Shown piece by piece: positions 21,987 to 48,472 of a stretch of DNA of 64,000 bases. The stretch spans positions 128,001 through 192,000 of the forward strand of contig CAXWPJ010000012.1 in the NCBI GenBank assembly GCA_963664115.2, in the 5' to 3' direction. The notes beneath the pieces were generated by a model. That model was not told where the DNA came from. It saw only the letters and a list, made by a program, of their open reading frames with translations, and searched no databases. Origin of the DNA: Terriglobia bacterium (GTDB taxonomy: Bacteria > Acidobacteriota > Terriglobia > 20CM-2-55-15). Numbering within the stretch: position 1 is the stretch's first letter; the number at the start of each line of letters is the position of its first letter. A program made the position numbers and the translations under genes.

Positions 21987-22027
21987 ATTCTCAGTGTCCG
22001 ACAATGTCGTTAACAGGCGTTGAGAAT
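21987..22027 (+). repeat. dif-like palindromic site, copy 1 (5-bp spacer variant)
   Basis: ATTCTCA-GTGTCCGACAA-TGTCG-TTAACAGGCGT-TGAGAAT. Confidence 0.7.
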
Positions 22028-22102
22028 TTAATAGCGCCTAACTCACTCCTCTAGTATCTTTTACCGGGTTTTTCTCGGTTCTTTCAGCGACACACTATAA
22101 CG

Positions 22103-22220
22103 ATGGAATCTGGCACCAAACTGGGCCGCTACTAACTCCTGAGCCTCCTTGGTAAGGGTGAAATGGGTGAATTGTGGCGTGCTCGGGACACCAAGCTCGG
22201 GCGTAAAGTTGCCATCGAAG
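22103..22220 (+). pseudogene. Ser/Thr protein kinase 5' stub
   Basis: MESGTKLGRY*LLSLLGKGEMGELWRARDTKLGRKVAIE: subdomain I-II with an internal stop. Confidence 0.85.
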
Positions 22221-22397
22221 GTAAGCGTCCAAGCTAAACCGTGTAGCGCGGCAGTCAAGAAGGCGTCATTCTTGGCGGATGGAAGCGAATCGGAAGAAGC
22301 GGCCCCAGAAGGTCGAAGCAGGAACGGCAGCGGATCGTCGAGGAGTCGCTACAAAGCGGGAACATCGGTGGCCGTCGTGGCCCGGGCTCATGCGTAA
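22221..22397 (+). mobile_element. IS66-family left-end remnant
   Basis: Starts with GTAAGCGTCC (IS66-type IR); GTSVAVVARAH resembles the IS66 TnpA HTH. Confidence 0.55.
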
Positions 22398-22449
22398 GCT
22401 TCCCCATCTGAGAGGCATGTCATAAGTGGAGCTTTCTGGCAGTTGAGGT

Positions 22450-22512
22450 TCACCCGACGTTGGATGGGTCGCTTTTGCATCCGATCGTGCAGAAGGCCTT
22501 GAGGTCTATGTA
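22450..22512 (+). pseudogene. PD40/TolB-like repeat fragment of the kinase gene
   Basis: Translates SPDVGWVAFASDRAEGLEVYV. Confidence 0.55.
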
Positions 22513-22548
22513 AAATTAGATTCGATGAATTGAAGAGTGAACGAATCT

Positions 22549-24168
22549 ATGGCCAAAAAAGAACGAGTTTGTGTGATTGGAGCGGGCCTGTCGGGCCTCA
22601 TTGCACTGAAGGAATTGCTTAAAAAAGGACATGACGTCACTTGCTATGAAAAGGAACTTCGCGAAGGAGGAGTCTTTAACTTTCCAACTGGTGTAGCTTA
22701 CGACACAATGCGTCTTACCGTCTCCCAGCACTTCATGTGCTTCACTGGGATGCCTGCGCCACCGCAGGAAAAGCGAGAGCTCTGGACACGAAGACGGTAC
22801 GCCCAGTATTTGCAGTCCTTCGCAGAAAGATTCGACCTTTTTAGCTACATTCAATTTAGCACCGAAGTAAAGGCGATCGAACTGTGTCAGGGAGGCCAAG
22901 TTCGGGTTACTTGTCGTCATAGCACCGAGAGTTACGACCGAAAGTTTGACGCAGTCGCGATTTGTCAGGGTGCGTTTCGCGCAGACGCCCCGCGAATGCC
23001 AAACATCGATGGTCTGGATAACTTTCCAGGAAGAGTGGTTCACAGCGGAACTTACAACGGCCCGGAGTCCTTTAAGGGTATGCGCGTATTGTGCGTAGGA
23101 ATGGGCGAAACGGCCGCGGACATTACTCTGCACATTTCTGAAGTAGCTGCGAGCTGCACATTGAGTATGCGGACCTTTCCCGAAATAATAAAAAGATACC
23201 GGGGTCCTAGCCAACGCACCACCGACGTCGACTCTACGCGACTCTTTCACTGGATGTCGCCGGAACAGCGAAACGATTTCTACGCCTTCAAACGGAAGTT
23301 TAGGGATACGAGGAAGCTTAGCGATCACGATCGGTTGGTTTACGAATGGAATCGAAAATCAGGTGGACGTCGCTCCCTCCAAAAGAACGACGATTTCGTA
23401 GGCAACGTCATTAATGGACGAATTCAGGTGCTTGCTCCGTCGGAGCTTAAACGTATTGAAGGCAATACGGTGATCTTTGACGATCATTCAACATTGGAAG
23501 TGGACGCAATCGTATTCAGCACAGGATACGAGGAGAGCTCCATTCCCAAAAATTGGATCAAGGACGTCGAGATCTCTGATGTTCGTCAGCTATACAAGCA
23601 TGCATTCCATATAGACCTGGGGAGGCAGGTTGCTTTTTTTGGTTGGGCACGACCTCGGCAGGGAGGGGTTCCTGTAATCTCTGAATTGTTAGCCAGGTAT
23701 TTCGCACTACTTTGCAGCGGTGAACGAGAGTTGCCTGCGAAAAGTGAAATGAAACGTGTAATTGCTGAAGATTTTGCGCGCGAGGAGGAGTGGTTCGCCA
23801 ATTCAAAATCTACACGTACGCTAGTTCACTACACACGCTATTTAGATGATCTTGCCGAACTGATTGGATGTCTTCCCCATCTGGAAGATTATCTGAATGA
23901 TCCAGAGCTGCTCACACACCTGATGTGTTCATCAAACATTGGAATGAGCTATCGGTTACAGGGCCCAGACGCCTTCCCCGAGATACCCAGAGAGGCTTGC
24001 GTGTCGGCGCCCATCGCTGATCCATATGAAGCTATCGATAAGTTTTTGGACTACTCTCTTAGACAGAGACTGAATCTTGACCTGGCAAACCGGGTCGCTG
24101 AGATCATTCGCACATATCTGACCACACACACGACGGACATGCCTTCGACGGAAACTTGGGGAAGCTGA
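22549..24168 (+). CDS. Flavin-containing monooxygenase (FMO-like)
   Basis: GAGLSG FAD motif, FPGRVVHSGTY (FMO signature), GMGETA NADPH motif, STGY; visibly more AT-rich than flanks. Confidence 0.88.
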   Translation: MAKKERVCVIGAGLSGLIALKELLKKGHDVTCYEKELREGGVFNFPTGVAYDTMRLTVSQHFMCFTGMPAPPQEKRELWTRRRYAQYLQSFAERFDLFSYIQFSTEVKAIELCQGGQVRVTCRHSTESYDRKFDAVAICQGAFRADAPRMPNIDGLDNFPGRVVHSGTYNGPESFKGMRVLCVGMGETAADITLHISEVAASCTLSMRTFPEIIKRYRGPSQRTTDVDSTRLFHWMSPEQRNDFYAFKRKFRDTRKLSDHDRLVYEWNRKSGGRRSLQKNDDFVGNVINGRIQVLAPSELKRIEGNTVIFDDHSTLEVDAIVFSTGYEESSIPKNWIKDVEISDVRQLYKHAFHIDLGRQVAFFGWARPRQGGVPVISELLARYFALLCSGERELPAKSEMKRVIAEDFAREEEWFANSKSTRTLVHYTRYLDDLAELIGCLPHLEDYLNDPELLTHLMCSSNIGMSYRLQGPDAFPEIPREACVSAPIADPYEAIDKFLDYSLRQRLNLDLANRVAEIIRTYLTTHTTDMPSTETWGS

Positions 24169-24283
24169 GACTGGCCGGTGCCGTGATTTTCGAGGTCAAG
24201 TCCTGAGAAATCATCTTCTCGGACTGTACGTCGTCAGAATAATTCGGACAAAAAGACCATTTAGCTAAGAGACGGTTTTGAAG

Positions 24284-25308
24284 TTATACCACTCCAATCC
24301 TAAGGTTCTCGATTTTGCGTCGAGCCAGCGTTTTTCTTTTGATCTGGTCACGACGTGCAAGGATCTGCTGATCCCTCCCGAAGAACACGTCAGCCGGTGT
24401 CACGTTGTTCAGAGATTCGTGATACCGATGGTGGTTGTAGTGTTCGACCCATTGCGCGATCGCCTGCTCAAGTTCCCACGGATAATAGTAGTGTTCCAAC
24501 TTGACCACGTTCTTCATCGAACGGTGATAGCGTTCGATCTTGCCCTGTGTCATCGGGTGATAGGGCGCACCCCGGGTGTGTTCCATACCACGACGTTGTA
24601 AATAGTCTTTGAGTTCGTGCGATACGTAGCAGGGGCCGTTGTCGCTCAACAATCGCGGTCGGTGCCGGACTTGTACTTGTCCGACATCTGTCGCCTGTAG
24701 TGCAACGTCCAGCGTGTCCTGAACGTCAGATGCGGCCATGGTTTGAAAGAGCTTCCAGGCGATGATGTAGCGAGAGTAATCGTCCAGCACGGTCGACAGG
24801 TAGTACCAACCCCAACCGACGACCCTGAAGTAAGTGAAATCAGTTTGCCAGAGTTCGTTCACACGCCGGGTTGGCTGCTGGAAGTGATCGCTGGCCGTCA
24901 TCACGATGTATGCGGGACTGGTGATCAGGTCGCATCTCTTCAGAATCCGATACACGCTGGATTCGGAGATGAAGTAGTCCTGGGTGTCGGTGATCTGCCA
25001 GGCCAGTTCCCGCGGTGAGGCTTCCGGGTGGTTCAACGCGGTTTCGACCACCTGTTCCCGCACCGGTCCCGGAATCCGGTTCCAGCAGAAGCCGGGGCCG
25101 GAATGCCGATCTAACAAGCCGGCTGCGCCACGCTCTTTGTATCGTCGATACCAACCGTAGAACGTGCTGCGGGGGACGCCCAGCTCCCGGAGGGTCGCTG
25201 TCACCGACAACTCCGAGTCTTCCACCACTCGGATCGTCTCCAGCTTCTCAGATCCCGATTGCCTCATATATCGATGCTCTCGGAGTCCGTTACGTTCAAC
25301 GTTTTTTT
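24284..25308 (-). CDS. Transposase OrfB (rve/DDE)
   Basis: WQTDFTY, LDDYSR, SDNG, QGKIERYH motifs; start set at the frameshift site. Confidence 0.88.
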
Positions 25309-25629
25309 CAGAAAACGATTCTTTAGCAGTATTTCGGCCACGACCTGCTTCAACTGATCGTTTTCCTGCCGCAACTCGGTGACTTCGCTCGATGTCGCTT
25401 CCCGCTTCGTGTCCCCAGCCAGCCGTTTCTTCCCCGCCTCCAGGAAGTCCTTGCTCCACCGGTAATACAGATTTGACGGAATCCCTTCGCGTCGGCACAG
25501 TTCTGCGATGCTCTCTTCGCCTCGCAACCCTTCCAACACGATCCGCACTTTCTCCTCAGACGAGTACTTCTTGCGCGTCTTTCGACGAATCTCTCGTACC
25601 CGATTCTCTGCCGACACTTTCTCACTCAT
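25264..25629 (-). CDS. Transposase OrfA (HTH)
   Basis: RKKYSSEEKVRIVLEGLRGEESIAELCRREGI HTH plus leucine zipper. Confidence 0.88.
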   Translation of the reverse strand: MSEKVSAENRVREIRRKTRKKYSSEEKVRIVLEGLRGEESIAELCRREGIPSNLYYRWSKDFLEAGKKRLAGDTKREATSSEVTELRQENDQLKQVVAEILLKNRFLKKTLNVTDSESIDI

Positions 25630-25819
25630 TCGATCCTCCTTCAGATCGTTCTGATTAGAAAAGTGTCTCTTAGTTTTTTAGGGTATTTCGTACGAAATGC
25701 TCTGACGGGCTACACTTCTCGGACCTTGAGAATTGATCCCACCACTTTCTGATAAGCCGAGTAACCTTCGATTGGGGCATATGGACGGTTTGCCGACTAT
25801 ACGGCAAGTGTAAGCTCGA

Positions 25820-25854
25820 CTGATGTGCCAGATGGCTTCTGAGGACTTGAGAAT
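25820..25854 (+). repeat. dif-like site, degenerate left arm
   Basis: ...GATGGC-TTCTGAGGACT-TGAGAAT. Confidence 0.5.
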
Positions 25855-28729: not shown

Positions 28730-28877
28730 ATGGGTTTTCAATCCATGGATTGGAGGCTGAATCGGGGAGACGCAGTGATGGTGGGGGGTGGTTGTAGCGG
28801 AAGAATGGGTTTTCAATCCATGGATTGGAGGCTGAATCGGGGAGACGCAGTGATGGTGGGGGGTGGTTGTAGCGGAA
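28730..28877. repeat. Tandem duplication, 75-bp period
   Basis: ATGGGTTTTCAATCC...GTAGCGGAA starts at 28730 and 28805. Confidence 0.92.
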
Positions 28878-29016
28878 AATCACTGTCGATCGCCCGAGTG
28901 GGGTGGGTTGGATATAGCGAAAGGGCACTTGAGCACGCGTGTTTTTGGCGTCTGGACACACTTCGGCGATGCAGTCTGGACGACCGCGTTGGGCTGGAAT
29001 TGTTGAGTGTCGATGG

Positions 29017-30201
29017 CTACGCACTATCCTGAATTGGAACCTCCTTTGATTCGAGAGCGGCGAGCTGTGCCGCGGTTAATCGCTCGACCAGACGCATCGG
29101 TCCCCGGCAGATCGGACACGGTGCCGGTGGGGTAGCACCCGCCTCGGACTCCGGCTCGGTGATGGACTCCTGACCTAAGAGGTGCCGACAGAGTTCCAGC
29201 ATCGTCTTGCGTTTCCGATTTGCCATCCATCCGTAGTACCGGATGCGGGGAAAGCCTTTCGGTAAGACATGCAGGAGGAATCGACGGAGGAACTCTTCGG
29301 GTTGGAGTGTCATTGTTCGTGGACGGCCATTGTGGCGATAGTCCTTCCAGCGGAATGTAACGCCGGATTGGTTGACATCGAGGATGCGATGATTCGAGAT
29401 GGCCACCCGATGGGTATAGCGGGCCAGGTACTGAAGGACGTGTTGGGGTCCGCCGAATGGTTCTTTGGCGTACACCACCCAGTTCCGATCCTTCAGATCG
29501 TCGAGGAACCGCTCGAAGGTGGATTCGGTGGCCAGTTCCAGACACTCCCCATGGAAAACGAGCGTCTTGTTTCCGAAGGCTTCGGCTAAACCGTCGAGAA
29601 ACTTTTCTCTGAAAACGTAGCTGAGCTTCTGGACCGGGAGGAAGAAGTCGGTCCGGGAGGAGTGGATCCACCGGTCGTGATCCGGGGACAGTCCGCCACC
29701 GGGAACCACACAGTGGATATGGGGATGGCGTTGCAGGGTTTGTCCCCAGGTATGCAGGATGCTGAGGAATCCGATCTCGCCGCCCAGATACCTGGGGTTT
29801 CGGGCCACTTCGATCAGCGCCGCCGCACTGGTTCGGAACAGAAGCGCATAGAGCACCTTCTTGTTCTGCCAGATCAATGGGATCAACTGATGGGGCAGGC
29901 TGAAGACCAGATGGAAGTATCCGATCGGTAGCAGTTCCTGTTGCCGTTTCTCGACCCAGGTGTTCCGCGCATTGGTCTGGCACTTCGGGCAGTGGCGGTT
30001 CCGGCACGAGTGGTAGACCAGCGTTTGGTGGCCACAGTGGTCGCATCGTTTCCGGTTCCCGCCCAGTGCGGCGGTCCGGCAATGGGTAATCGCGTTGAGG
30101 ACCTTGACCTGGGGCCAGGCCAGCGCTTTCAAATACCGTTGTCGGAATCGGTCTCCGACGATGCGAATCACGTCAGCCACCTCAAAGGGTGGCCGGCTCA
30201 C
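29017..30201 (-). CDS. IS91-family (Y2 HUH) transposase
   Basis: Zn-binding SCRNRHCPKCQ, HTWG, HPHIH (HUH), YLARY. Confidence 0.92.
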   Translation of the reverse strand: MSRPPFEVADVIRIVGDRFRQRYLKALAWPQVKVLNAITHCRTAALGGNRKRCDHCGHQTLVYHSCRNRHCPKCQTNARNTWVEKRQQELLPIGYFHLVFSLPHQLIPLIWQNKKVLYALLFRTSAAALIEVARNPRYLGGEIGFLSILHTWGQTLQRHPHIHCVVPGGGLSPDHDRWIHSSRTDFFLPVQKLSYVFREKFLDGLAEAFGNKTLVFHGECLELATESTFERFLDDLKDRNWVVYAKEPFGGPQHVLQYLARYTHRVAISNHRILDVNQSGVTFRWKDYRHNGRPRTMTLQPEEFLRRFLLHVLPKGFPRIRYYGWMANRKRKTMLELCRHLLGQESITEPESEAGATPPAPCPICRGPMRLVERLTAAQLAALESKEVPIQDSA

Positions 30202-31079
30202 TTCTTTGGATCCTTAACCACAGGTGAAAGCTTCAACTGATCCAGAGGATTGCGCGCGGTTCGAAGATGGCGCCGGGACAGTTGCAGGTAGAGCGTGGTA
30301 TCGCTGAGCCGACTGTGTCCCATCAAGAGCTGGATCGTGCGCAAGTCGGTCCCGGACTCTAGCAGGTGGGTCGCGAAGCTGTGCCGTAGCGTGTGCGGAC
30401 CGATCCTCTGGGTCAGACCCGCACGCTGGGCGGCCCCATGAACGGCATGCCAGACCACCTTGTCCGAGATCGGAGCATCCGTGCCCCGGTGTCCTGCACT
30501 GCTGTGAAACAGATAGACCTCGGGCTTTTTCAATAACCAGTACCCCCGTAACGCTTCAAGCAGATTGCGACTCAACGGGACATCCCGGTCCCGACGCCCT
30601 TTCCCGTCGCGGATATGCACCAGCATCCGTTCACTGTCGATGTCGGCCACCTTCAACACGGCGGCTTCGGCCCGTCGCATCCCGGTCCCGTAGAGCACCA
30701 TCAGGATGGCCCGGTGCATCGGACTCAATGCGGCTTGGATCAACCGGCGGACTTCAGACGGACCCAGGATCGTGGGTAGTTTCCGCGCACTCTTGGGCAT
30801 GGGCAGATCATCCAGTTCCAGATCCGCACGTCGCAGCAGCACCTTCTTGTAAAGGAATCGTATCGCCGAGGTCCGCATCCCGACCGTACTCGCCGCCAGC
30901 TTCTTTTCGGTCAGTAAGTACAGCTGAAAACGCCGTACCTCCTCGGCTCCCATCAAGGCCGGAGACTTGCCGAAGTAATTCGCGAATTGTTCGACTGCCA
31001 GAATGTAGCCACGACTCGTGGCCGGGGAATAGTTCCGTCGCTGGAGTTCCTCCAGCATCCGTTCTCGTAGTTGGGTCAT
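30198..31079 (-). CDS. Tyrosine recombinase/integrase
   Basis: YGTGMR, GKGRRDR, HTLRHSFATHLLE, LMGH, TTLY. Confidence 0.92.
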   Translation of the reverse strand: MTQLRERMLEELQRRNYSPATSRGYILAVEQFANYFGKSPALMGAEEVRRFQLYLLTEKKLAASTVGMRTSAIRFLYKKVLLRRADLELDDLPMPKSARKLPTILGPSEVRRLIQAALSPMHRAILMVLYGTGMRRAEAAVLKVADIDSERMLVHIRDGKGRRDRDVPLSRNLLEALRGYWLLKKPEVYLFHSSAGHRGTDAPISDKVVWHAVHGAAQRAGLTQRIGPHTLRHSFATHLLESGTDLRTIQLLMGHSRLSDTTLYLQLSRRHLRTARNPLDQLKLSPVVKDPKK

Positions 31080-31187
31080 AAGACACCTCCTTATGACCGC
31101 TACTTTATGGGACAGACTCTATCTGCTGTACGCCGACTCCGAGCGCCTGCGGCTTAGTTCAAACCGGCTATACGAAGAACCCTCGCC

Positions 31188-31227
31188 ATTCTCAACGCCT
31201 GATAAATCATTGTCGGACACTGAGAAT
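31188..31227 (-). repeat. dif-like palindromic site (4-bp spacer variant)
   Basis: Reverse complement reads ATTCTCA-GTGTCCGACAA-TGAT-TTATCAGGCGT-TGAGAAT. Confidence 0.7.
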
Positions 31228-31328
31228 TGGCCGTGACCGAACAGGATCACAACTTCCTTGCTTATAACCCCTACCTGTAGTTAGATTTATCCAACTTTTT
31301 CACGTTTCGTTTCGGTAAACAATAATTT

Positions 31329-33199: not shown

Positions 33200-33243
33200 C
33201 TAGGGGCGTCCTTTCATACTGCGATTTAACAGGACTTGAGAAT
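33199..33243 (+). mobile_element. Solo IS1111-type end fused to the right half of a dif-like site
   Basis: TCTAGGGGCGTCCTTTCATACTGCGAT-TTAACAGGACTTGA is identical to 41134-41174. Confidence 0.85.
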
Positions 33244-33258
33244 CATTTTCACCGTCGT

Positions 33259-33657
33259 TTAGGGCACCGGCACCCGTTCAACCGCCAAAGTAAGACGACC
33301 AACAGCACTGACGACTTCCACCGTGCTTCCTCTGGGCACGGGCCCTGTTGGGGCCGTCGCACGCCACAGCTCGCCGCGCACGCGGACGTAACCCTTTGGC
33401 GTGAGGTCGGTGGTGACGACTCCACGGAGGCCCACCATACGCTCAACTCCCGTCCGTGGATCTTCTTCGTATGACTGTCGGAGGAACGGATAGAGAGCAA
33501 GGTCTTTCACAACCCAGCAACCGAGCAGCGTGCCGGCGGCCCAGGCGGGCATTTCCACTCGACGCCACAGCAAAAGCAGCACGCCTACCAGCCCGAGCCA
33601 GCCCGGAATCTGAATGACGATGTATTTCAGAAACGTCCGAGTTGGCGGCCAGTACAT
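33259..33657 (-). CDS. Short NfeD-family membrane protein with a kinase-type C-terminus
   Basis: Two TM segments, OB-fold GYVRVRGELWRA, ends ERVPVP*. Confidence 0.8.
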   Translation of the reverse strand: MYWPPTRTFLKYIVIQIPGWLGLVGVLLLLWRRVEMPAWAAGTLLGCWVVKDLALYPFLRQSYEEDPRTGVERMVGLRGVVTTDLTPKGYVRVRGELWRATAPTGPVPRGSTVEVVSAVGRLTLAVERVPVP

Positions 33658-33892
33658 GACGCCACTATCTCATAGGACGGCACTGAACCGACTCTTTCAA
33701 TCTGGCTTTGAAAATCTCGATAAAGAAACATGAAAGCAAGAGGTCGCGCGACGGCCTGCGGCCGCGACGATTCGTCCTCGGCAACGCCGAATGGTAGAGC
33801 TATTCACTTCCGCAGGATAGGTAAACCCTTGGCGACTTATCGTTAGTAATCCGGCGTTATTTCAGTTCCTAGGCACTTCTCCCCGAAGTTCA

Positions 33893-33927
33893 ACGTCCGA
33901 GAAGATGATTTGTCAGGACTTGACCTC
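33893..33927 (+). repeat. dif-like palindromic site (intact 11-6-11)
   Basis: ACGTCCGAGAA-GATGAT-TTGTCAGGACT-TGACCTC. Confidence 0.8.
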
Positions 33928-33932
33928 CAAAA

Positions 33933-34030
33933 TCAGGGAACTGGCACCCTCTCCTTCAGTTCTTCAAACCAATTCAGGACGATGTTGATTCCGGGGGCGG
34001 GCGGCCTCGCCAGTACCGGTCTTCCGTCTA
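33933..34030 (-). pseudogene. Kinase 3' stub
   Basis: INIVLNWFEELKERVPVP* on the minus strand. Confidence 0.8.
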
Positions 34031-34085
34031 CCTGGAAATCCTGATTCGGACAAGGGCGGTTTGTCCGCGTCTTTCCATTCCAGTG

Positions 34086-35246: not shown

Positions 35247-35558
35247 AACCCGGTGAGAGCAGCGCAGGACAAGTGGTGATGTGTGGCCGGGTTACTTTCG
35301 ATGAGGGCGTTTGAAGAAAGCTGCCCACAGGTCAGGCGTCTACGTAGTTTGACAGCGGTTTCGGGTATCGACAACGTGAAGACAGGCCAAGTGTAAACGA
35401 TATTGTAGGACACCGTGAAATGCCCTGTTTAGAGCAAGTGTCACATTGACGGTTAGGCGACAATACAGGACTTGGACAATCGGCGAGTTTTCATGCCGTC
35501 ATTCTGCTGCGTGCAGAGTCAACCTGACGTTGCCGTTTCAAAGGTCGTCGATAAGATG

Positions 35559-38087: not shown

Positions 38088-38288
38088 GCGTCCCGGACGG
38101 CCGTCTCACGGGAAGTGGGCGGGTTTGCCGTCACCCATCGTCCTTCGATCACACCCGTAAATAAAACTACATAAGGGACTTAGCGTCAATCTGCAAGGCA
38201 CATCCCTGTCACCCCCTAACCGGAATAGTGGCTTGTACTCAAGGACCCATTCACATTTGGGAAACCTGAAATGTTCCTGGAAACGATT

Positions 38289-38382
38289 ACTCCCGAAAAA
38301 CGCCGTTGTCGGAAGCTGAGAAACCCCAGTAATTTGCCCAATTCTCAAGTGACGCGAAGATGATTTCTCAGGACCTGAGAAT
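38289..38382. repeat. Two back-to-back dif-like sites
   Basis: Minus strand TTTCTCA-GCTTCCGACAA-CGGCGT-TTTTCGGGAGT (38289-38323); plus strand ATTCTCA-AGTGACGCGAA-GATGAT-TTCTCAGGACC-TGAGAAT (38341-38382). Confidence 0.7.
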
Positions 38383-39556: not shown

Positions 39557-39789
39557 CGTGCCTGACTCACAAGGAGGCACCAACCCACTGGCGGGATTCT
39601 CAACGTCCGAGAAGATGATCTATGAAAGGGGATGTCAAGAGAAACAGCTCCCCGATGGCCGGCCAGACGGACACTTTTGTCGTGACAGCCAGCCCCTCTA
39701 CCGTTATGTGAAGCCCTGGTTCCGGCAATCCGCAGCGAAATCGTACATCTTTAAGACGGTCGATTCAGAAACTGAACAGCATATGGGAC

Positions 39790-39985
39790 GGCATGTGCCG
39801 ACCATGGATCTATCTGAGCCTCGAAGGCTATCGCTGTTTCAGGTCGTGCGAGGGGGGATAGAGATTTAAAAGTGTCCTCTGGACGTATCCAGGGACCACA
39901 TCTTGTGCAGATCCTCACCCTCGATCCTCAGTTGTTCCGACTCCGTCTAACGACTCAGTACGGCTCTACCGGTCACGGATCGAAA
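39790..39985 (-). ncRNA. Putative bridge/seek RNA of the IS1111-type element
   Basis: Two closed stem-loop units whose internal loops match the target (GATTTAA, CATCTTGT) and the donor junction (GATCTAT, ATCGC); ends approximate. Confidence 0.6.
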
Positions 39986-39989
39986 CGGC

Positions 39990-41054
39990 TTATGTTGTCA
40001 TCCAGCTCAGTTTCTTTGGATCGAACGATTCTCCTTTCTTCCAAAGCGTCAGCACCAGTGCGGCGATCTTACGGGCCAGAGTGACCCGCGCCATTTCCTC
40101 CCGCATCCCACGCATCTGGAGACTCTCCAGATAAATCCGATACGGCTCGCTTTGTTTTCCCGATGCCGCGGCTGAGAAGAACACCGACTTCAATCGCCGG
40201 TTGCAGTTCGCATTCAATCCGCGTGTGGCCACCGGTTTCCTCCGTCGCACCACACGTCCACTCTGCATCTCATACTCCGCGCTCATGTGGGTCACCACAC
40301 CCAGGCCACTGTAGCTCCAGAACTGCGGTGTCGTGCGGAATCGGTACGGCGTGTCCACGATGGCGACGATCTGTGCCGCCCGAACCGGTCCCAGTTGTGG
40401 AATGGTCTCGAGCAGTTTCACCGCCTCATGGTGCCGGCCCTCCACTCGCACCGCTTTTCTGGATTGTTTCCGCAGCAACTGGACCTGGTCCAGTTCCGCA
40501 TACAACCATCGGGCGCGCTGCCTCATCCCCGGCTCGGTCAGCTTCTCCAACCACTGTTCGCGCTGACTCGGCCGATAGACTCCGTCCTTCGGTGTCGGGA
40601 TCCCCCGTCCCCGGTATATCGCTTTGATCCGCGACATCACCCGTTGCGTGTCCAACTGGAACGTGTCATAGGCCTGCACCAGTTGCTTCAATTCTCGCGT
40701 CGCTTCATGGCCGTGATACACCGAGCGCAACAGTCCCACCCGCAACAGCTCGGCCAGCTTCCGCGCATCCGGCTTATCCCCCTTCGACCCTTCTTGCATC
40801 CACTTGTTCTGTCGCGGATCGCACACCACCACCTCGCTCACCCACGGCCGGATCACTTCCGATAACCAGCCCGCTTGCGTGGTCTCCTCCAACCCCACGT
40901 GCATCGGCCCACTCAATCCCTCCAGCAGCCGTGTGATACTCCCCGCCTCGGTTTCCACGATCGTTTCAAACACCAGTTTGCCGCTCCCGTCTCTCACCGC
41001 AACCACCGTCGTTGCCTGGTGCACATCCATACCCATATACTTGTCTTGTTTCAT
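39990..41054 (-). CDS. IS110-family DEDD recombinase/transposase
   Basis: YMGMDVH, GLEET, KGDKPDARKLA, TIPQLGP, YSGL, catalytic Ser candidate in HMSA. Confidence 0.9.
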   Translation of the reverse strand: MKQDKYMGMDVHQATTVVAVRDGSGKLVFETIVETEAGSITRLLEGLSGPMHVGLEETTQAGWLSEVIRPWVSEVVVCDPRQNKWMQEGSKGDKPDARKLAELLRVGLLRSVYHGHEATRELKQLVQAYDTFQLDTQRVMSRIKAIYRGRGIPTPKDGVYRPSQREQWLEKLTEPGMRQRARWLYAELDQVQLLRKQSRKAVRVEGRHHEAVKLLETIPQLGPVRAAQIVAIVDTPYRFRTTPQFWSYSGLGVVTHMSAEYEMQSGRVVRRRKPVATRGLNANCNRRLKSVFFSAAASGKQSEPYRIYLESLQMRGMREEMARVTLARKIAALVLTLWKKGESFDPKKLSWMTT

Positions 41055-41183
41055 CTCGAACGCTCCTTTTCTGGGATCAACGCTGTATACGTTGATCAGG
41101 TTGTTGAGTGAGTCTTCTCTCAACAACCCCCAGTCTAGGGGCGTCCTTTCATACTGCGATTTAACAGGACTTGACCTCGTAAA

Positions 41184-41297
41184 TCAGGGCACCGGCACCC
41201 GTTCTTTCAGTTCTTCAAACCAGTTGAGGACGATGTTGATTCTTGGGCGCTCGGTTTCTTCCAAGTCGGCCCGCTACTCGGGAGTTGGCACGACGAT
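41184..41297 (-). pseudogene. Kinase 3' stub
   Basis: ...PE*RADLEETERPRINIVLNWFEELKERVPVP*. Confidence 0.8.
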
Positions 41298-41471
41298 TCA
41301 GTAAACATTACGGCGTTGGTGGGAAGTAATAGGCTCGATGTCTTGAACGTCGACTACGCCACAATGAATCGCTTGCAGTTGCCGGACTAACGGGCGAGAC
41401 TAAAAACACACGAGCGTCGGCAGACAACCTGGCGTTCTTGCCTGCTTAACAAATCATCGGAGGTAAGTATC

Positions 41472-41954
41472 ATGCGCGGAGCAATGCTGTTTGCGGCCGG
41501 ACTCTTCGTTGGGTTGGCCGTAAGTGTGGGGATGGCGCAAAACGCCAACAGTAATGTCGTGATGATGAATCACGTGGGCATCAACGTGCCGGACATCCCG
41601 GATGCGATGACATACTACACCGAGACAATGGGCTACCGGGAAGCGTTCCGTCTCAACGACGACAACGGGCAGCCGAGGCTGGTCTACATGCACATCAGCG
41701 AAAACACGTTCCTTGAGCTCGGGCAGGCGAACGCGCAACGGCCTGCAGGTTTCAGCCATTATGGGCTGCACGTCGAGAACGTGGCAGACGCCGTCGCACG
41801 GTTCAGAAGGGACGGCGCAACTGTCAGTGATACCCGCACCAGCGATACCAAAGCGATCCTCGCCAACATCACTGATCCGTACATGGGCCGCATCGAATTG
41901 GCCGAACTCCCTCCGGAGTCCCTGCATTACAAGGCCATTCAGAGCTGGAATTGA
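41472..41954 (+). CDS. VOC/glyoxalase family secreted protein
   Basis: NHVGINV, FLEL, SHYGLHV, DP..GRIEL. Confidence 0.85.
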   Translation: MRGAMLFAAGLFVGLAVSVGMAQNANSNVVMMNHVGINVPDIPDAMTYYTETMGYREAFRLNDDNGQPRLVYMHISENTFLELGQANAQRPAGFSHYGLHVENVADAVARFRRDGATVSDTRTSDTKAILANITDPYMGRIELAELPPESLHYKAIQSWN

Positions 41955-41968
41955 GAAGGAGCATAGAC

Positions 41969-43081
41969 ATGAAAGTTTCAGGTTTCGTGAGGTTCTCGTC
42001 GATGGTGGTGATCGCTGCCGTCGGGATTGCCCTGCTGGCAACGAGTGTTCAAACACAGCAGCGGGCAGGCACGGTTGAGACGGACAGAGTTCAACCCGTC
42101 AACAGCGGCGCCAATCCTTATCGCGTCTTCCGGGACTGGGCACAGCTCAATTTAGAGGCGAGACCGTGGGGCGGCTCCAACGGCGTCGCCATCGACCCCG
42201 ATGGCCGGTCCGTGTGGGCCGTCGACCGATGCTCACCCGGGACGACTCCGGGCTGTGTCGACAGCCCAGGGAACCCGGTCCACCATTTCGATGAGTCTGG
42301 AAATGAGATCCTAAGCTTTGGCAGCGGGATGTTCGTCTGGCCGCACGGCATCCATGTCGATCGAGACGGAAATGTGTGGGTTACCGATGCACGAGCCGAG
42401 AGCAACAAGGGAAGCGTCGTGGTCAAGTTCAGTCCCGAAGGCAGAGTCCTCATGACGCTTGGGACGCCGGGTGTGAGCGGAAACCCTCCCGAAGCTCTGA
42501 CTGACCCGACCAGCGTCGTGACCGACCCGGGAAATGGTGACGTGTACGTGGCGGAGAGCCATACGAACGTAACCGATCCCAATCTGGTCGGCCGCATCTC
42601 CGTCTTCGACAGAGACGGGAACTTCCTCAGAGTGATCGGCAAGACCGGAACGGGGCCGGGAGAGTTCCGGACGCCGCATGCGCTCGCGTTCGATTCCCAG
42701 GGCCGGCTCATCGTCGCCGATCGCCACAACCATCGCATCCAGATCCTGACGAAGGACGGTAGGTTCATCCGTGAATACGCCGACTTCGGGCGCGTCAGCG
42801 GGCTGGCCATCGACAGCAACGACGTCATTTACGCGGCCGACTCCGAGTCGAACGAAAGGGTTCACCCAGGCTGGAGGAGGGGAATCCGGATCGGCAGCCT
42901 CCGAGACGGGGAGGTGACCATGTTCATTCCGGCACACCCGACGGATTCTCCGGACGGTGCGATGGGCGAAGGCATCGCGATCGACCCCGAGGGCAATATC
43001 TACACGGCGGAAGCACGATTGAGCGACACGCCGGAAGCACGAGTGAGGGGCGTGACGAAGTACGTCAAGAACGAGAATTGA
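41969..43081 (+). CDS. NHL-repeat (PAL-like) secreted protein
   Basis: PHGIHVDRDGNVWVTD, GPGEFRTPHALAFDSQGRLIVADR. Confidence 0.85.
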   Translation: MKVSGFVRFSSMVVIAAVGIALLATSVQTQQRAGTVETDRVQPVNSGANPYRVFRDWAQLNLEARPWGGSNGVAIDPDGRSVWAVDRCSPGTTPGCVDSPGNPVHHFDESGNEILSFGSGMFVWPHGIHVDRDGNVWVTDARAESNKGSVVVKFSPEGRVLMTLGTPGVSGNPPEALTDPTSVVTDPGNGDVYVAESHTNVTDPNLVGRISVFDRDGNFLRVIGKTGTGPGEFRTPHALAFDSQGRLIVADRHNHRIQILTKDGRFIREYADFGRVSGLAIDSNDVIYAADSESNERVHPGWRRGIRIGSLRDGEVTMFIPAHPTDSPDGAMGEGIAIDPEGNIYTAEARLSDTPEARVRGVTKYVKNEN

Positions 43082-43344
43082 AGCGCGTCAATCATCGCGC
43101 TTCGCTGATCTGAACCGGAGAAGCCCCGCTTCGATCTGCCTGCACAAGGAGTTGCGGTCAATCAGAAGGTCCAGTCCCTGAGATACCGCGGACACGAAAA
43201 AGTGGAATGCCCTAACATGGAGCCCTTCAGGCGCGATCCACTTTGGAGCATAGGCGACTATACGTCCGTGTGGATTGCCTCATCTTCGAATCTGGATACT
43301 TGAGAGTAGTTTAGTAGGCTGTGGGTAGCGAGACTTGATGATCG

Positions 43345-43443
43345 CTACGGGACCGGCACCCGTTCCTTCAGTTCTTCAAACCAGTTCAGGACGATGTTGA
43401 TTTGGGGTCATGCGACCTCGCCGCTATCGGCCTGGTCGGCGGG
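43345..43443 (-). pseudogene. Kinase 3' stub
   Basis: PADQADSGEVA*PQINIVLNWFEELKERVPVP*. Confidence 0.8.
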
Positions 43444-43575
43444 CCGAAACGGGTTGAGACTCGACACCGCCTCGGTTCACCGCCTCGAATCTACACTGGG
43501 GATGACTCGACGGACTCGGCCTACTTCGCCACAGATCCCAGGAGGGCGACGTCACGGGGCGCACTCAAGTTAAAT

Positions 43576-43870
43576 GACCCCCGGCAAAGCCGGGGGCTTA
43601 GTTTTGTTAGCCCCTCAAAAGGGCCGGTCAAGAGCCGCCTGAAGGCGGCGAATTCGCCCACGGTATGTTCAACTGCTCCACAATTCTTCGTCCGTCGGTA
43701 CTTCGGTACGGACACCGCGTGACACTAGCAATCCCATGTCGTGTGCAATAGGCTTTGGCAGTCTTTCGTTACGTCCTCCTTGTTCGAAAGTTGGCGCTTC
43801 CAAGGAGGAGTTCCTTATTTACTGCCGCTTTCGGTCAAACCTCTGCGAGTCGCCCCGGCAGAGCCGGGGC
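43576..43870 (-). mobile_element. Internally deleted IS200/IS605 (tnpA) remnant
   Basis: Hairpins CCCCCGGCAAAGCCGGGGG and GCCCCGGCAGAGCCGGGGC at the two ends; decayed QSLLHTTWDC*CHAVSVPKYRR resembles the TnpA N-terminus. Confidence 0.7.
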
Positions 43871-43890
43871 TTTACCTGTTGGAATTAGCC

Positions 43891-44760
43891 CTAGCTTCCA
43901 CTGCCATCCGTTGTGCTGCCACCACCAAGGTCACTCACAAAGGACTGGAGCATGGTGGTGAACTCCATGGGGAATATGAACTTGGTGGCGGCACCTTCTC
44001 CGAGTCGCTTCAGCGTCTCAAAGTATTGCAGGCTCATAGTTCGGGCGTCTGCGGTCCGGGCAACCGTGTTGATCTGAGTGAGGGCGTTGCTGAACCCTTC
44101 CGCGTTGAGAATAGCGGCCTGGCGAGTCCCCTCAGCACGGAGCATGGCGGCCTGCCGCTCACCCTCAGCTTTAAGGATGGCCGCCTGCTTTTCCCCCTCG
44201 GCTCGGTTTATTTGGGCCTGGCGTTGTCCTTCCGACTCTGTGATATCGGCCGTCTTGATGGCCTCCGCCGACTTCTCCCTCTCCATGGCGTTCTTCACCC
44301 CGTCGGGTGGGTCGATCTCGTTGATTGCGGCCCCGCGGACCTTGACCCCCCAGCGGCCCGTATTTTCGTCCAGCGCAATCTGGAGCTGACTTTGTATCTG
44401 CTCCCGTTCGCTTAGCGCCGCGGCCAGAGTTATATTGCCAATGATGGACCTGAGCTCTGCCACGGCCAGGTTCCGCACCGCCAGGCGGTGGTTCGCCACC
44501 TCGAGGACCGATTTCTCCGCTTGATCCGGTAGGACGCGGTAATAGAGTACAAAGTCCATGTCCACAACCACGTTGTCCTTGGTGATGTACTGCTGCGTTG
44601 GGACTCGCTCCGGCACCTCCCGGGTATCTACGACCCTACCGGAATGGAAGAAAGGTATGAGGAAATGAAACCCGGCGCCCTTGAGACTCCCCGTGTACTT
44701 TCCCAAGGAAAACACCACCATCTTCTCGTACTGTTTGACGATCACTATGCCTGTTGCCAT
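43891..44760 (-). CDS. SPFH/stomatin (band 7) protein
   Basis: ITKDNV, RWGVKV, EIDPP, AEG-repeat coiled coil. Confidence 0.9.
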   Translation of the reverse strand: MATGIVIVKQYEKMVVFSLGKYTGSLKGAGFHFLIPFFHSGRVVDTREVPERVPTQQYITKDNVVVDMDFVLYYRVLPDQAEKSVLEVANHRLAVRNLAVAELRSIIGNITLAAALSEREQIQSQLQIALDENTGRWGVKVRGAAINEIDPPDGVKNAMEREKSAEAIKTADITESEGQRQAQINRAEGEKQAAILKAEGERQAAMLRAEGTRQAAILNAEGFSNALTQINTVARTADARTMSLQYFETLKRLGEGAATKFIFPMEFTTMLQSFVSDLGGGSTTDGSGS

Positions 44761-44855
44761 GGTAGCCTCCTGAATGTCTTGTGCACTGGTAACCTAGTCA
44801 CTCCACTAGTCTTATAGTTACGCCGTACGCCTCTCCATACGGGTTCAACCCGAGA

Positions 44856-46235
44856 CTAGTGAGCTGATTCCAGAGGTTGATCACTCTGCTCTAGCCGGAT
44901 CACGGTGAGAATGATGCCGTTCACCTTCACCACCTCTACCTTTTCTCCAGAGCCTATCTGGTCGCTGCCCTGGGCCACTGCGGTCCAAAGTTGGTTTTCC
45001 AAGCGCACCGTACCCCGGGGTGCAAGATCAGTGGCAACCTCCGCCATTTGGCCCACCAAGCCAGCCACACCTGGATCGAGCGGCCCTCTTCGCGACCGTA
45101 CGATGGTGGTGATCACCCATCCTCCACCACCACTCAGCACCAGCGCCGTGGACACTAGGAACCACGGGCTCACACCTATACGCGGCATTGTGGGTGATGG
45201 CGCACCCGTATGGAAGAAAAGGAAAACCCCTCCCAAGATGAAGCTAACGATGGCCCCAACACCCAGGATACCAAAGCCCGCCACGTAGACCTCCAGCGCC
45301 GCTAGGACCACTGCCATGAGGATGAGCACCACACCCGCCCAGTTGACCGGCAGGTTCCCCAGGGTGACGTAGGAGAGAATCAAGAGGATGAGTCCAGTTA
45401 CTCCCGGCACGATCAAACCTGGATTCAGTAACTCCAAGAAAATGCCCAGACTGCCGAGAGACAGGAGCAAATAGGAAACGTTGGGATCGGAGAGGAAGCG
45501 CAGGAATCGCTCGACCAGGCTCATCTCCATGGTCTGCACCGCCACCCCTTGCGTTTCCAGTACCAGGCGTGGGCCACCAGGGGGCCGTACCGTGGCCTCC
45601 CGGCCGTGGAGCTGGGCCAGGAGGTCATCCAGATCACCAGCCAGAAAATCCACCATGCCGGACTCCACCGCCTCTTCGCCGGTGAAAGACAGTGCCTGAA
45701 GCACGGTGGCCTCCAGCTTCTCCTGATTCCGACCCCGTAGCTCGGCGATGGTCCTCATCTCGGCCGCGGCGTCGTTGGTGACCTTGGACCTGAGGGTCTC
45801 TGGAAGCTCCTCACCGTCACCGCTAACCGGGCTGGCAGCACCGACGTTGGTCCCTGGCGCCATCACAGCGAAAGTGGCGGCAGCAGTGATGAAGGTACCC
45901 GCCGAGGCAGCCCTCGCCCCACGAGGTGCCACGTACACCACCGACGGCAGCTCTGCGTTGAGCAAGTGTTGGGTAATCTTCCGCGTAGAGTCCAGAAGAC
46001 CACCAGGGGTATCCAAGTGAACTATGATCAGGCTGGCACCCTCGGCCTCGGCCCGCTCCACACCCCGGGCAATGAACCCCTCAGTAACGGGGCTGATGAT
46101 GCCATCCACTTCCAGGAGTAGGACGTGGCGCTGCTGCGCGTGGCCAAGATTCAACAATCCTCCGGCCATGGCCACAGCCGACAGCAACCCCACCAGCAGG
46201 TGAGGCTTACCCCTGATCCTTGCTCCACTCAGCAT
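44856..46235 (-). CDS. Long NfeD membrane-bound serine protease (ClpP-class)
   Basis: LDTPGG, AASAG, GAASP, TM block, C-terminal OB fold; paired with SPFH. Confidence 0.9.
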   Translation of the reverse strand: MLSGARIRGKPHLLVGLLSAVAMAGGLLNLGHAQQRHVLLLEVDGIISPVTEGFIARGVERAEAEGASLIIVHLDTPGGLLDSTRKITQHLLNAELPSVVYVAPRGARAASAGTFITAAATFAVMAPGTNVGAASPVSGDGEELPETLRSKVTNDAAAEMRTIAELRGRNQEKLEATVLQALSFTGEEAVESGMVDFLAGDLDDLLAQLHGREATVRPPGGPRLVLETQGVAVQTMEMSLVERFLRFLSDPNVSYLLLSLGSLGIFLELLNPGLIVPGVTGLILLILSYVTLGNLPVNWAGVVLILMAVVLAALEVYVAGFGILGVGAIVSFILGGVFLFFHTGAPSPTMPRIGVSPWFLVSTALVLSGGGGWVITTIVRSRRGPLDPGVAGLVGQMAEVATDLAPRGTVRLENQLWTAVAQGSDQIGSGEKVEVVKVNGIILTVIRLEQSDQPLESAH

Positions 46236-46371
46236 GTTCCACGAATCCTGATCCTAGTAGCATCCCTCAACTCCGCCCCAGGCAATGCTCAATCTTGTGA
46301 AGCTCGTTTGAGTCGTTAGCGGCTGAGCGTTTACGACTGCTGGCCTTTGAGAGCTTTGAGTTTTTCCAGGG

Positions 46372-46452
46372 TGCGCGCCACACTTCACCCATTCCACCCT
46401 TACCTAAAAGCGTTGAGATCTCGTAATGACCGAGTTTGGTGCCAGATTCCAT
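46372..46452 (-). pseudogene. Ser/Thr kinase 5' stub
   Basis: MESGTKLGHYEISTLLGKGGMGEVWRA. Confidence 0.88.
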
Positions 46453-46527
46453 GTTCAAAGTGTGTCGCTGAAAAAACCGAGTAAATCTCGGTAAAAGATA
46501 CTAGAGGAGTGAGTTAGGCGCTATCAA

Positions 46528-46569
46528 ATTCTCAAGTCCCTGCAAATGACCTTGGCGGACAGTCAGATA
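46528..46569 (-). repeat. dif-like palindromic site (11-6-11)
   Basis: Reverse complement reads CTGTCCGCCAA-GGTCAT-TTGCAGGGACT-TGAGAAT. Confidence 0.7.
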
Positions 46570-46885
46570 GCCGAGTCTTTCATCCAAATCCGTAAGGATC
46601 TCAATGGAACACAACTGGACCTGGCAGGAGTTGACTGTTCAAAACGAAGCAAACGAAGGTGACGAAGGGAGAGATCTGAGAGAATGAACTAGGAAAGGTG
46701 CAGAGGAAGAAATCAGTGGTCATCAGTCAGGAATTATCAGTCCGAAGGTGAGAAATCGTGTCGGCCGGATTTCTCTAAACCCATAACTATTAACTCTTAA
46801 CATTCCTTACCGCACCTGTTCTTTTAAGATCACAAGTGTCCCTGCCGCTGCAGGACCGCAACCCGTGCGGAACGGAAGTTCACGA

Positions 46886-48133
46886 ATGAGCGCCAAACGT
46901 GTTGTCATTGTCGGTGGTGGAGTGATTGGGACCGCCTGCGCTCATTACCTCAAGAATGCCGGCTTCGACATTACGATTATCGACAGCGGAAGCATCGGCG
47001 GCGGCTGTTCCCATGGCAATTGCGGATACGTCAGCCCCAGCCAAGTCCTTCCACTGACCGAGCCCGCTGCAGTCGGTAAAGCATTCAGGTCGCTTTTTAA
47101 AAAGAACGCACCGCTACGCATCAAACCCCGCTTCGATCCGCAGTTGTGGAGTTGGCTCATAAATTTCGCTCGACGCTGCAATACGCGCGATATGCTGCAA
47201 GCGGCCGAGGCACGTCACGCATTGCTGGCTTCCTCAAGAGAGCTTTACACCGAATTGTTTGAGACAGAAGATGTTCCATGCGAGTGGGAAGAACGCGGCC
47301 TATATTTAGTGTTCAAGACAGCCGCCGCGTTCGAGAAATATGCTGAAACAGACAGGTTGATTCGCGACAACTTCGGCATCGGGGCGACACGTTTCGGTGC
47401 GAGCGAAGTAGTGAAGCGTGAACCTGCCTTGTTGGATGATATCTCGGGCGCGTGGTACTACGAGGGCGACGCGCACCTACGTCCGGACCGGCTGTTGTCG
47501 TCCTGGCGAAAACTGCTTGAGTCGCGCGGGGTGGCGATCATCGAACAGTGTAAGTTCACACATTTCGTCCAGAGCGGTGACCAAGCCGTCGCAATCTCAA
47601 CATCAATGGATAAGCTGGAAGCTGATTGCTTCGTTGTCGCCACCGGTGCCTGGACGCCCCAGTTGAATTTTGAAATCGGCTGCCGGATTCCGGTTCAGCC
47701 TGGCAAAGGCTATTCCATCACGATGCCTCGCCCCGTGCTGTGTCCCGGGACTCCGCTCATTTTTTCTGAAGACAAAGTAGCTGTGACTCCGATGCAATCT
47801 GGATATCGGCTGGGTTCCACGATCGAGTTTGCAGGCTACGATACAACACTCAACCCGACGCGACTCGAGATGCTCAAAGAGTCCGCTAGACACTACCTCC
47901 GCGAACCGTACTCCGAGCCTGTGGAAGAAGAGTGGTACGGTTGGCGACCGATGACCTATGACGGCGTTCCCTTTATCGACCGCAGTCCACGCTTCTCCAA
48001 CGTCTTAATCGCCACCGGCCACAACATGCTCGGCCTCAGCATGGCCACTGCAACGGGCAAGCTGATCGCGGAATGGCTCAGCGACGAAACGCCTCACATT
48101 GATCCGAAGCCATATCGAATTCAGCGGATTTGA
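46886..48133 (+). CDS. D-amino acid dehydrogenase-like FAD oxidoreductase
   Basis: GGGVIG, CSHGNCG, PGKGYS, GWRPMT.DG.P, ATGHNMLG. Confidence 0.88.
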   Translation: MSAKRVVIVGGGVIGTACAHYLKNAGFDITIIDSGSIGGGCSHGNCGYVSPSQVLPLTEPAAVGKAFRSLFKKNAPLRIKPRFDPQLWSWLINFARRCNTRDMLQAAEARHALLASSRELYTELFETEDVPCEWEERGLYLVFKTAAAFEKYAETDRLIRDNFGIGATRFGASEVVKREPALLDDISGAWYYEGDAHLRPDRLLSSWRKLLESRGVAIIEQCKFTHFVQSGDQAVAISTSMDKLEADCFVVATGAWTPQLNFEIGCRIPVQPGKGYSITMPRPVLCPGTPLIFSEDKVAVTPMQSGYRLGSTIEFAGYDTTLNPTRLEMLKESARHYLREPYSEPVEEEWYGWRPMTYDGVPFIDRSPRFSNVLIATGHNMLGLSMATATGKLIAEWLSDETPHIDPKPYRIQRI

Positions 48134-48444
48134 GTTCGGTGTTCCGCACACTCCAGACGGTACTGTCAACTTGGGCTCGCTGAAGTTGTTACAGGTCGTT
48201 CAGTCAGAACTTCGGCGTGACGTTCCGTCTTCATTACCAATGAACTACGTCCGTTAGATCAGGTGCTGCGGCGATGAAACAAAGCAATGAAGCTGGCACC
48301 CGCAAACGTGACAGTTGCCCCGCATAACCTCACCACTCCACCAACTCCTTCTCCGTAAGCTCCTGGAAGCACCTCGGACACTTCGCAGCCGCTGACAGGA
48401 GGCCACGCCCAATTCTTTGAAGTTTTCAGGAATTACAGATGTCA

Positions 48445-48472
48445 ACTTCCGACAAGATGATTTATCAGACTA
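48445..48472 (+). repeat. dif-like palindromic site (11-6-11)
   Basis: ACTTCCGACAA-GATGAT-TTATCAGACTA. Confidence 0.75.

Follow-up and report, generated by a model that had tools for sequence, protein, structure and literature searches.

A 42-bp repeat at the joints of gene cassettes in a Terriglobia chromosome, a candidate recombination site of XerC

The 64,000-nucleotide stretch of contig CAXWPJ010000012.1 analysed here (the window) belongs to the genome of a Terriglobia bacterium and carries, in its accessory region, copies of a 42-bp repeat built from two 11-bp arms around a 6-bp spacer. The explanation preferred here, with modest confidence, is that this repeat forms the joints of gene cassettes reordered between arrays and between species, and that it is a likely recombination site of XerC, probably on both arms, with or without the participation of XerD. 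The analysis covers the whole genome holding the window (G000, 4.89 Mb) and the relatives G001-G004, G013, G021, G026 and G029.

Site family, spacer classes and exchange between arrays

A profile of the 42-bp site, seeded from two window copies and then applied to the whole of G000, retrieves 282 copies, consisting of 165 intact sites, 63 left halves, 51 right halves and 3 weak matches, against 0 full, 0 left-half and 2 right-half matches for the same profile in the reversed genome. A few of the 282 are assembly duplicates, and the 165 intact sites become 157 once identical contexts are removed. Of these sites, 257 are grouped into 31 arrays which span 597 kb, i.e., 12% of G000, and only 3 of the 282 are located inside confident open reading frames. 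The site is organized in a 7-11-6-11-7 layout with the consensus ATTCTCA ACGTCCGAGAA GATGAT TTCTCAGGACT TGA followed by four variable letters, the spacer being uniformly of 6 bp and the arms extending to 14 bp. Near-identical segments located at contig ends or in two arrays (C6:19099-46165 and C11:1-63536; C2:1-14093; C5:1-11221, all in G000) correspond to assembly overlaps or to strain variants with a differing cassette content.

The preliminary description of the window had recognized this family, its 11-6-11 core and its consensus, the spacer GATGAT in five copies and the absence of copies from the flanking DNA, all of which are borne out, every window copy being located between 21.8 and 48.5 kb. 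Among the 14 copies that it listed, 12 score as whole or partial members; those at 26204 and 28503 are negative on both arms and belong to a separate family of about 100 bp with 14 copies in G000. It had overlooked how far the family extends across the genome, its division into two spacer classes and the kinase-gene shell described below. The spacers of 4, 5 and 11 nt that it mentioned each correspond to a single damaged copy. In favour of its suggestion of Tn3-type res sub-sites, recognized by a serine resolvase, stands only a likeness of half-sites which it named; the uniform 6-nt spacing, instead of three sub-sites with unequal spacers, and the three resolvase genes of G000, none of which occurs inside any of the 31 arrays, make this origin hardly credible.

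With respect to their spacers, A sites (GATGAT) are distinguished from B sites (TGTCGT or GGTCGT), the 6-bp centre being constant inside a class and differing by orientation. Among G000 neighbours less than 10 kb apart, direct pairs combine the same class in 122 cases and different classes in 4, whereas inverted pairs combine different classes in 62 cases and the same class in 9, with 27 pairs of unclassifiable spacer excluded. The corresponding figures in 42 stretches from G001-G003 are 127 and 0 for direct pairs, and 62 and 2 for inverted pairs (4 pairs excluded). Neighbours are mostly direct A-A pairs, the A sites being repeated head to tail. In Acinetobacter, dif modules are reported to alternate, with spacer identity deciding which sites recombine (PMC13141974, available text), and the rule found here follows the same logic. 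A third class comprises 18 G000 copies with the spacer GTCGGC and two XerC-like arms, often located 53 or 85 bp from an A site (e.g., C12:544094 and C2:332367 in G000, and also L074:5958 and L235:4676). The end of a small CPNC zinc-finger-like gene recurs directly behind the left arm of B sites (G000 C9:934270 and C10:221186; L190, L192), the region 48929-49366 of the window being another candidate.

The behaviour of the sites as joints becomes apparent from the comparison of species. Of the 153 sites of G002, 28 possess one 450-nt flank orthologous to the flank of a G000 site, and in none of these 28 do both flanks occur at one G000 site, against 60 of 129 non-site control points from the same stretches that are contiguous (p=5e-7). 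Two G002 sites join flanks from different G000 contigs, and 9 more sites from G001 and G003 are likewise never conserved, the G003 control being thin (1/8). Inside G000, several cassettes recur from site to site in different arrays, such as the window unit 33222-33922, a 99.3% copy of which occurs in another array at C2:317260-317944, and the left flank families show no preference for particular right flank families (p=0.16).

The exchange falls inside the site. For two sites with a common left flank, agreement is found at letters 1-4 in 12 of 12 disjoint pairs at a threshold of at least 94% and at letters 39-42 in 1 of 12; for those with a common right flank, it is found at letters 30-35 in 9 of 10 pairs and at letters 1-4 in 3 of 10. 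A-by-A recombination would be expected to excise cassettes and to re-insert them in whichever of the 31 arrays. The inversion of single units would be blocked by the mismatch of the A and B spacers.

The distribution of the site is narrow. A looser pattern retrieves 152, 113, 62, 17 and 8 copies from the five members of the genus and 1-6 copies from four of five genomes of a second genus; the remaining 25 genomes of the family and 400 genomes from elsewhere in the phylum have none. In a set of 185,579 species genomes, exact matches are restricted to Terriglobia records; 15 short metagenome contigs carry the site, most of them with the same flanks, and a comparison with viral contigs gives no match. 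Lineage-specific A spacers occur in G004 (CCGGAT, L074-L077) and in several G026 and G029 copies (GAGGAT). With respect to its setting, the site shows no bias towards replication strands, 33 A sites being leading and 25 lagging in the 9 callable arrays of 33 groups, where the skew is weak, nor any significant link to islands at transfer RNA (tRNA) genes, as 13 of the 31 arrays lie less than 12 kb from a tRNA gene against 10.4 at random (p=0.20). Rfam returns tRNA-Val as its sole match and nothing for the site, and a literature search, in which subscription journals are thinly covered, returned no published description of the 42-bp site or of the kinase-shell cassettes.

The kinase-PD40 shell and its cargo

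Many sites are bordered by the ends of one particular gene. The right flank of 78 of the 165 intact A sites consists of the final codons, in reverse, of a Ser/Thr kinase-PD40 gene, whereas that of 34 of 39 B sites consists of a leader and the start of such a gene, the crossed combinations amounting to 1 and 1. The founding unit is shown by an intact archetype in G001, in which an A and a B site placed back to back 17 bp apart are followed by a promoter-like leader, an 881-codon kinase-PD40 gene and another A site. All four intact kinase genes that pass the filter in G000 end at a site, and G000 contains in addition 60 further 5' and 124 further 3' kinase remnants with scattered inner breakpoints, many units keeping only the two gene ends around unrelated cargo. 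In 40 closed shells, the cargo genes are preferentially oriented with the leader (46 with, 16 against, p=0.0002) and some of them are fused in frame to the kinase ends, e.g., the NfeD-like gene of the window. The consensus leader matches a promoter by eye at 9 of 12 positions with an 18-nt gap, and a sigma-70 scan of the first leader of the window gives 0 hits. The inner kinase/cargo junctions display no capture motif, an end resembling a miniature inverted-repeat transposable element (MITE) following in about 5 of 60.

New cassettes are likely born when the central part of a pre-existing unit is exchanged for foreign DNA, which takes over the sites and promoter of this unit. A fuller scheme, in which host XerC would act on symmetric sites without XerD as a genome-wide cassette system, and in which the cassettes would be made by hollowing out a self-spreading kinase-PD40 module, is put forward tentatively and is more doubtful than the recombination site itself. 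Tandem intact kinase-PD40 genes with overlapping stop and start codons occur at L223-L224 and L228-L229 (G026, G029) and at L231-L232 (G021, G013). Their last 35 nt or so are nearly identical DNA in spite of proteins about 48% identical to the query, and a palindrome of the repetitive extragenic palindromic (REP) type separates the tandem genes in G013 and G021.

The way in which B and A sites face each other around the kinase shell, together with the scattered internal breakpoints, recalls a non-autonomous transposon with the sites as imperfect terminal inverted repeats and a Pack-type capture of genes by internal replacement. The outer flanks nevertheless belong to conserved families, often with another site 16-17 or 106 bp away, and most neighbours are direct A-A pairs. 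Moreover, since the left arm keeps its left flank and it is the right flank that varies, the break occurs inside the site and not at its outer edge, and a transposon of this kind is considered very improbable.

Alternatively, the repeat could be a protein-binding operator bordering, on either end, the genes of a kinase family subject to tandem expansion and decay, with ordinary homologous recombination or gene conversion between the repeated ends, made of site and kinase sequence, shuffling the units and no dedicated recombinase being involved. The scrambled inner letters of the site are those expected under conversion, the kinase family is expanded family-wide, including where the site is absent, the inner breakpoints of the remnants are scattered, and the arrays are rich in insertion sequences (IS; 21% of arrays versus 6% elsewhere). 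However, the exchange stops inside the site even though homology continues into the kinase remnant, as indicated by letters 30-35 that follow the right flank (11/12), and the free combination of flank families and the class-constant, orientation-dependent 6-bp centres are also difficult to reconcile with an operator. About half of the A sites are devoid of any kinase remnant and their core is still 93% conserved, and an operator would not be expected downstream of a stop codon. Taken together, these features render the operator quite unlikely.

Candidate recombinases and comparison with dif

The preliminary description had likened the repeat to dif and proposed a comparison with the true dif of the genome. 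This true dif, ACGTCGCATAA TGAGTA TTATGTCAAGT, is located at C2:108118, where the GC skew turns from plus to minus, and a dif-like site occurs, mostly once per genome, in 22 of 27 family genomes searched. The repeat is a different sequence, so that its identification as the chromosomal dif is rejected. What remains of the likeness is the 11-6-11 architecture, the behaviour of the sites as recombination joints and the left arm, which shares 8-9 of 11 bases with the XerC arms of the family's dif sites in 126 of the 165 intact sites; the predicted dif of Solibacter also has an XerC arm close to this left arm (PMC3025954, available text). The right arm departs from dif, as had been anticipated. 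It shares 6 of 11 bases with the XerD arms in 104 of the 165 sites and at most 7 in 164, as compared to 7-8 of 11 bases with a reversed XerC arm in 138 sites, and it keeps the innermost TT without the fifth G, both of which are described as crucial in the XerD arm in the consulted part of one study (PMC9226527). Both arms are accordingly nearer to the family's XerC arm than to its XerD arm. Three G000 sites (C2:111514, C2:750682 and C9:952936), two of them inside arrays, combine the XerC arm and spacer of the true dif with a XerC-like right arm different from XerD arms, and are possibly scars of dif-integrating elements.

With respect to the enzymes, G000 encodes XerC, XerD, an integron integrase (IntI), IS91-linked integrases and phage-type integrases. 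XerC and XerD, 79-92% identical to those of G000, are the only close tyrosine-recombinase orthologues common to G000, G002, G003 and G004, the four genomes covered by this comparison (95-97% complete), and a sensitive search with an own profile over the six reading frames reveals no other candidate common to all carriers. Their presence is a matter of elimination and not a proof, because relatives devoid of the site also possess them. Apart from IS-borne enzymes, no recombinase family recurs at the arrays.

Other candidates were considered and rejected. IntI (G000 C9:714590-715759, L012, with no copy of the site nearby) is separated by 193 kb from the closest array, and neither G003 nor G004 was found to contain it. 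A 316-aa integrase encoded between B sites was not found in G002-G004; its gene (G000 C5:52058-53271, L019) fills the gap of two back-to-back B sites, each of which opens a kinase shell. The IS91 element carrying the IS91-linked integrase was not found in G003, and a P4-like integrase has relatives of 70% and 51% in G003 and G002 and of only 29% in G004. The two tyrosine recombinases of the window, previously proposed for binding assays, fare no better: the IS91-linked enzyme was not found in a genome with 62 sites, and close orthologues of the one next to tRNA-Val are missing from the three other genomes.

The same cassette system might nonetheless be run in trans by another tyrosine recombinase, either a missing or visiting enzyme or an IntI-like integrase (IntI or that of the IS91 element), acting on duplex DNA or on a folded strand. 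The arms that reach 14 bp, the right arm that is not XerD-like, the integron integrase encoded by G000, the IS91-integrase elements that end at or near sites, and a consensus that lends itself to a hairpin drawing with an additional base in each arm, are all compatible with this possibility. It appears unlikely, taking into account that IntI was not found in G003 and G004, the IS91 element in G003 and the 316-aa integrase in G002-G004, and that no recombinase family other than those of IS recurs at arrays. The folded-strand version in particular, which matches the earlier suggestion of an attC-like hairpin, receives no support from covariation, as the potential partners 16 and 27 are paired in 47 of the 118 A sites, where chance predicts about 50, and the G-to-T change at position 10 is never compensated (0/10), nor from folding, six folds giving z-scores of -1.5 to +0.7, no better than shuffles. 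A REP-type or hairpin reading is rejected on the same grounds, and duplex recognition is favoured over a hairpin.

Coming back to the recombination site of XerC, a series of observations weighs against it. XerC, XerD and an ordinary dif also occur in family members without the site, the right arm shares only 6 of 11 bases with XerD arms in most copies and is without G at position 5, and the spacer rule could be inherited from one founder instead of being selected. Letters 15-16 (6/15) and 27-28 (3/12) are not tied to their own flank at a cut-off of 90% (chance 0.29). Letter 27 tends to go with the distant flank, on the left (9/15, p=0.05). Such uncoupled inner letters are not predicted by a clean exchange inside the 6-bp spacer. 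In related genera, intact kinase genes follow one another in tandem and overlap without an intervening site, from which it follows that kinase arrays can grow without the site. Circles or excision products were not seen in 4 of 22 public runs over 19.5 kb, where contigs break at repeats; public contigs cannot bridge the repeated 42-mer, and joints with sides shorter than 31 nt are uninformative. In the available text of one Acinetobacter study, xrs cassettes undergo exchange by way of cointegrates instead of excision (PMC11705084), and the mode of movement of such modules is disputed according to the same text. As to the inner letters, they would result from a junction moving over about 20 bp or from conversion between sites, and repeated events or conversion could blur the signal of a spacer-confined crossover. 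In the preferred explanation, the Holliday junction is likely to move, or to be resolved, over about 20 bp and not strictly in the 6-bp spacer.

The window array, known systems and implications

In the window, the family forms one array of about 13 sites, the two halves of which point in opposite directions and meet at an IS1380 element. Because the halves are opposed and the core genes flanking the array are about 1 Mb apart in G001 and G002, the window array probably consists of two arrays joined by a rearrangement.

The array begins with a left half-site (21839..21880, minus strand) which has lost its right arm, is absent from the earlier list and stands back to back, at 106 bp, with the B-class site 21987..22028 (plus strand; spacer TGTCGT, one nucleotide lost from the right arm). 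This B site opens a kinase shell comprising a promoter-like leader and the broken 5' end of the Ser/Thr kinase-PD40 gene (22028..22216, plus strand, ATG at 22103), a cargo flavin monooxygenase gene (22537..24168, plus strand), the last kinase codons and an A site (24192..25733, minus strand; spacer GATGAT; halves scored at 24192 and 25692) split by an IS481/IS3-like element (24226-25715) with a duplication of about 10 bp. A degenerate site with a preserved right arm (25813..25854, plus strand) is followed by a kinase 5' remnant (25980-26107). The repeat ends of about 100 bp that do not belong to the family (26207-26308 and 28426-28527) are inverted around a sulfatase gene (26655-28355), and this ensemble of MITE-like ends and sulfatase gene resembles a small composite transposon inside a kinase shell. 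An element composed of an IS91 transposase and an integrase (28805..31165, minus strand), with a 73-bp direct repeat at its far end (28730-28877), is followed by a site with a loss of 2 nt (31186..31229, minus strand), behind the left arm of which a kinase 5' remnant (31258-31346) is cut by the IS1380 element (31347-33203).

Further along, a site-to-site cassette (33202..33927, plus strand) extends from a half-site located after an IS110 end (33202) to an intact A site (33886-33927), and contains the NfeD-like gene (33259-33657, minus strand) fused to kinase C-terminal codons. The next kinase shell (33929..35248, minus strand) consists of a 3' remnant (33929-34023), a cyclase-like cargo gene (34086-35072), a leader and a degenerate site (35207-35248). 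A back-to-back pair 17 bp apart (38282..38382) combines a damaged site (38282, minus strand) and an intact A site (38341, plus strand), and a further A site (39596..41178, plus strand; halves scored at 39596 and 41137) is interrupted at the 3' spacer edge by an element of the IS110 family (39620-41157). A further kinase shell (41179..46527, minus strand) possesses two 3' remnants (41179-41257 and 43346-43439), a 5' remnant with leader (46351-46527), and a cargo of glyoxalase and NHL genes and of an SPFH/NfeD pair, the glyoxalase part of which recurs bounded by sites in G002; it is opened by the B-class site 46528..46569 (minus strand, spacer GGTCAT). The last A site, with a damaged right arm (48438..48479, plus strand), comes after a flavin adenine dinucleotide (FAD) oxidoreductase gene (46865-48133). 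Beside the array, the segment 51906..52965 comprises a phage-type integrase gene (plus strand) and tRNA-Val (52893-52965, minus strand), at which this gene ends, with an IS6-family transposase gene (50704-51405) and a small helix-turn-helix gene (51699-51875) in between. Two related genes of the metallo-beta-lactamase fold (12906-13985 and 18831-19841) occur about 5.9 kb apart outside the array.

Depending on their family, IS differ in their affinity for the site. An IS110-family element is inserted at the 3' edge of the spacer in 7 of 7 copies, one of them in the window, a second IS110 type uses the same edge in 6 of 8 copies and an IS30 type in 8 of 8, the last two labels being read from transposases and ends and not from a library call. 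IS481-like (1/18) and IS1380 (3/75) elements display no preference for sites. Matches between the IS110 guide and the site are limited to 6-8 nt and are not above chance. Five of the 6 copies of the IS91-integrase element end 37-48 nt from a site centre, and elsewhere, relatives of this element have their start precisely at the edge of the spacer in B and A sites.

Sedentary integrons and clusters of attC sites lacking integron integrases (CALINs) contain head-to-tail arrays of attC sites, which are recognizable by their core motifs and measure at least 57 nt, and attC sites are targeted by IS110-family elements. The present arrays resemble them by their length, their head-to-tail organization, their shuffled cassettes of one or a few genes, the lack of an adjacent integrase and the targeting by IS110-family elements. 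Unlike attC, the site measures 42 bp, lacks the core motifs of attC and shows no hairpin covariation, with the AAC/GTT pair occurring only in a minority of copies; unlike integron cassettes, those described here carry a promoter-like leader and an inner inverted site, and IntI does not lie next to the arrays and was missing from the results for two site-bearing genomes.

Acinetobacter pdif/dif modules, as far as the available texts describe them, share with the present system the 11-6-11 core, the XerC-like arm, the inverted bounding sites in which arm-in and arm-out alternate, the sorting by spacers, the shuffling and the targeting by IS. They differ by a right arm that is not XerD here and by a crossover not confined to the 6-bp spacer, and the cassettes found here rely on two main spacers, are mostly of the direct A-A type and often possess a kinase-gene shell. 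In the consulted part of its source, the nearest printed case is an Acinetobacter chromosome with 22 sites and one 36-kb dif module island (PMC12907356), as compared to about 280 chromosomal sites in 31 arrays here. The IS1202 family is described, in the accessible text, as specialized in the targeting of Xer sites (10.1101/2022.12.17.520857); IS specialized on Xer-type sites occur in both cases, with other IS families and another insertion point here, IS110 and IS30 at the spacer edge instead of IS1202-type elements 5 bp outside. Similarly, sites of integrative mobile elements exploiting Xer (IMEX) with a degenerate XerD arm, such as the attP of TLC phage with XafT (PMC9226527, part consulted), keep the XerC arm while the XerD arm departs from dif. 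In contrast to TLC attP, which recombines with dif according to the same text, the present site has a spacer different from that of dif, is distributed genome-wide and has no identified activator. The system thus works like a chromosomal dif-module or integron array and is filed under neither, because the tests for a XerD arm, for a spacer crossover, for attC and for IntI fail.

With these results, the dif-module-like shuffling of genes in Acinetobacter plasmids is extended to an acidobacterial chromosome, about 12% of which is concerned, by means of a site beyond the reach of the existing definitions of dif and attC. The XerC-like arms on both sides, and the homing of IS110 and IS30 to one bond, could yield a new recombination tool and targeting rules for IS. 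The kinase remnants offer a visible route for cassette creation, a long-open question, with the founder, its ends and its derivatives present in one genome. Should the hollowing out of the kinase-PD40 module be true, more than 100 snapshots of the birth of gene cassettes would be available, a step which is unexplained for integrons and dif modules.

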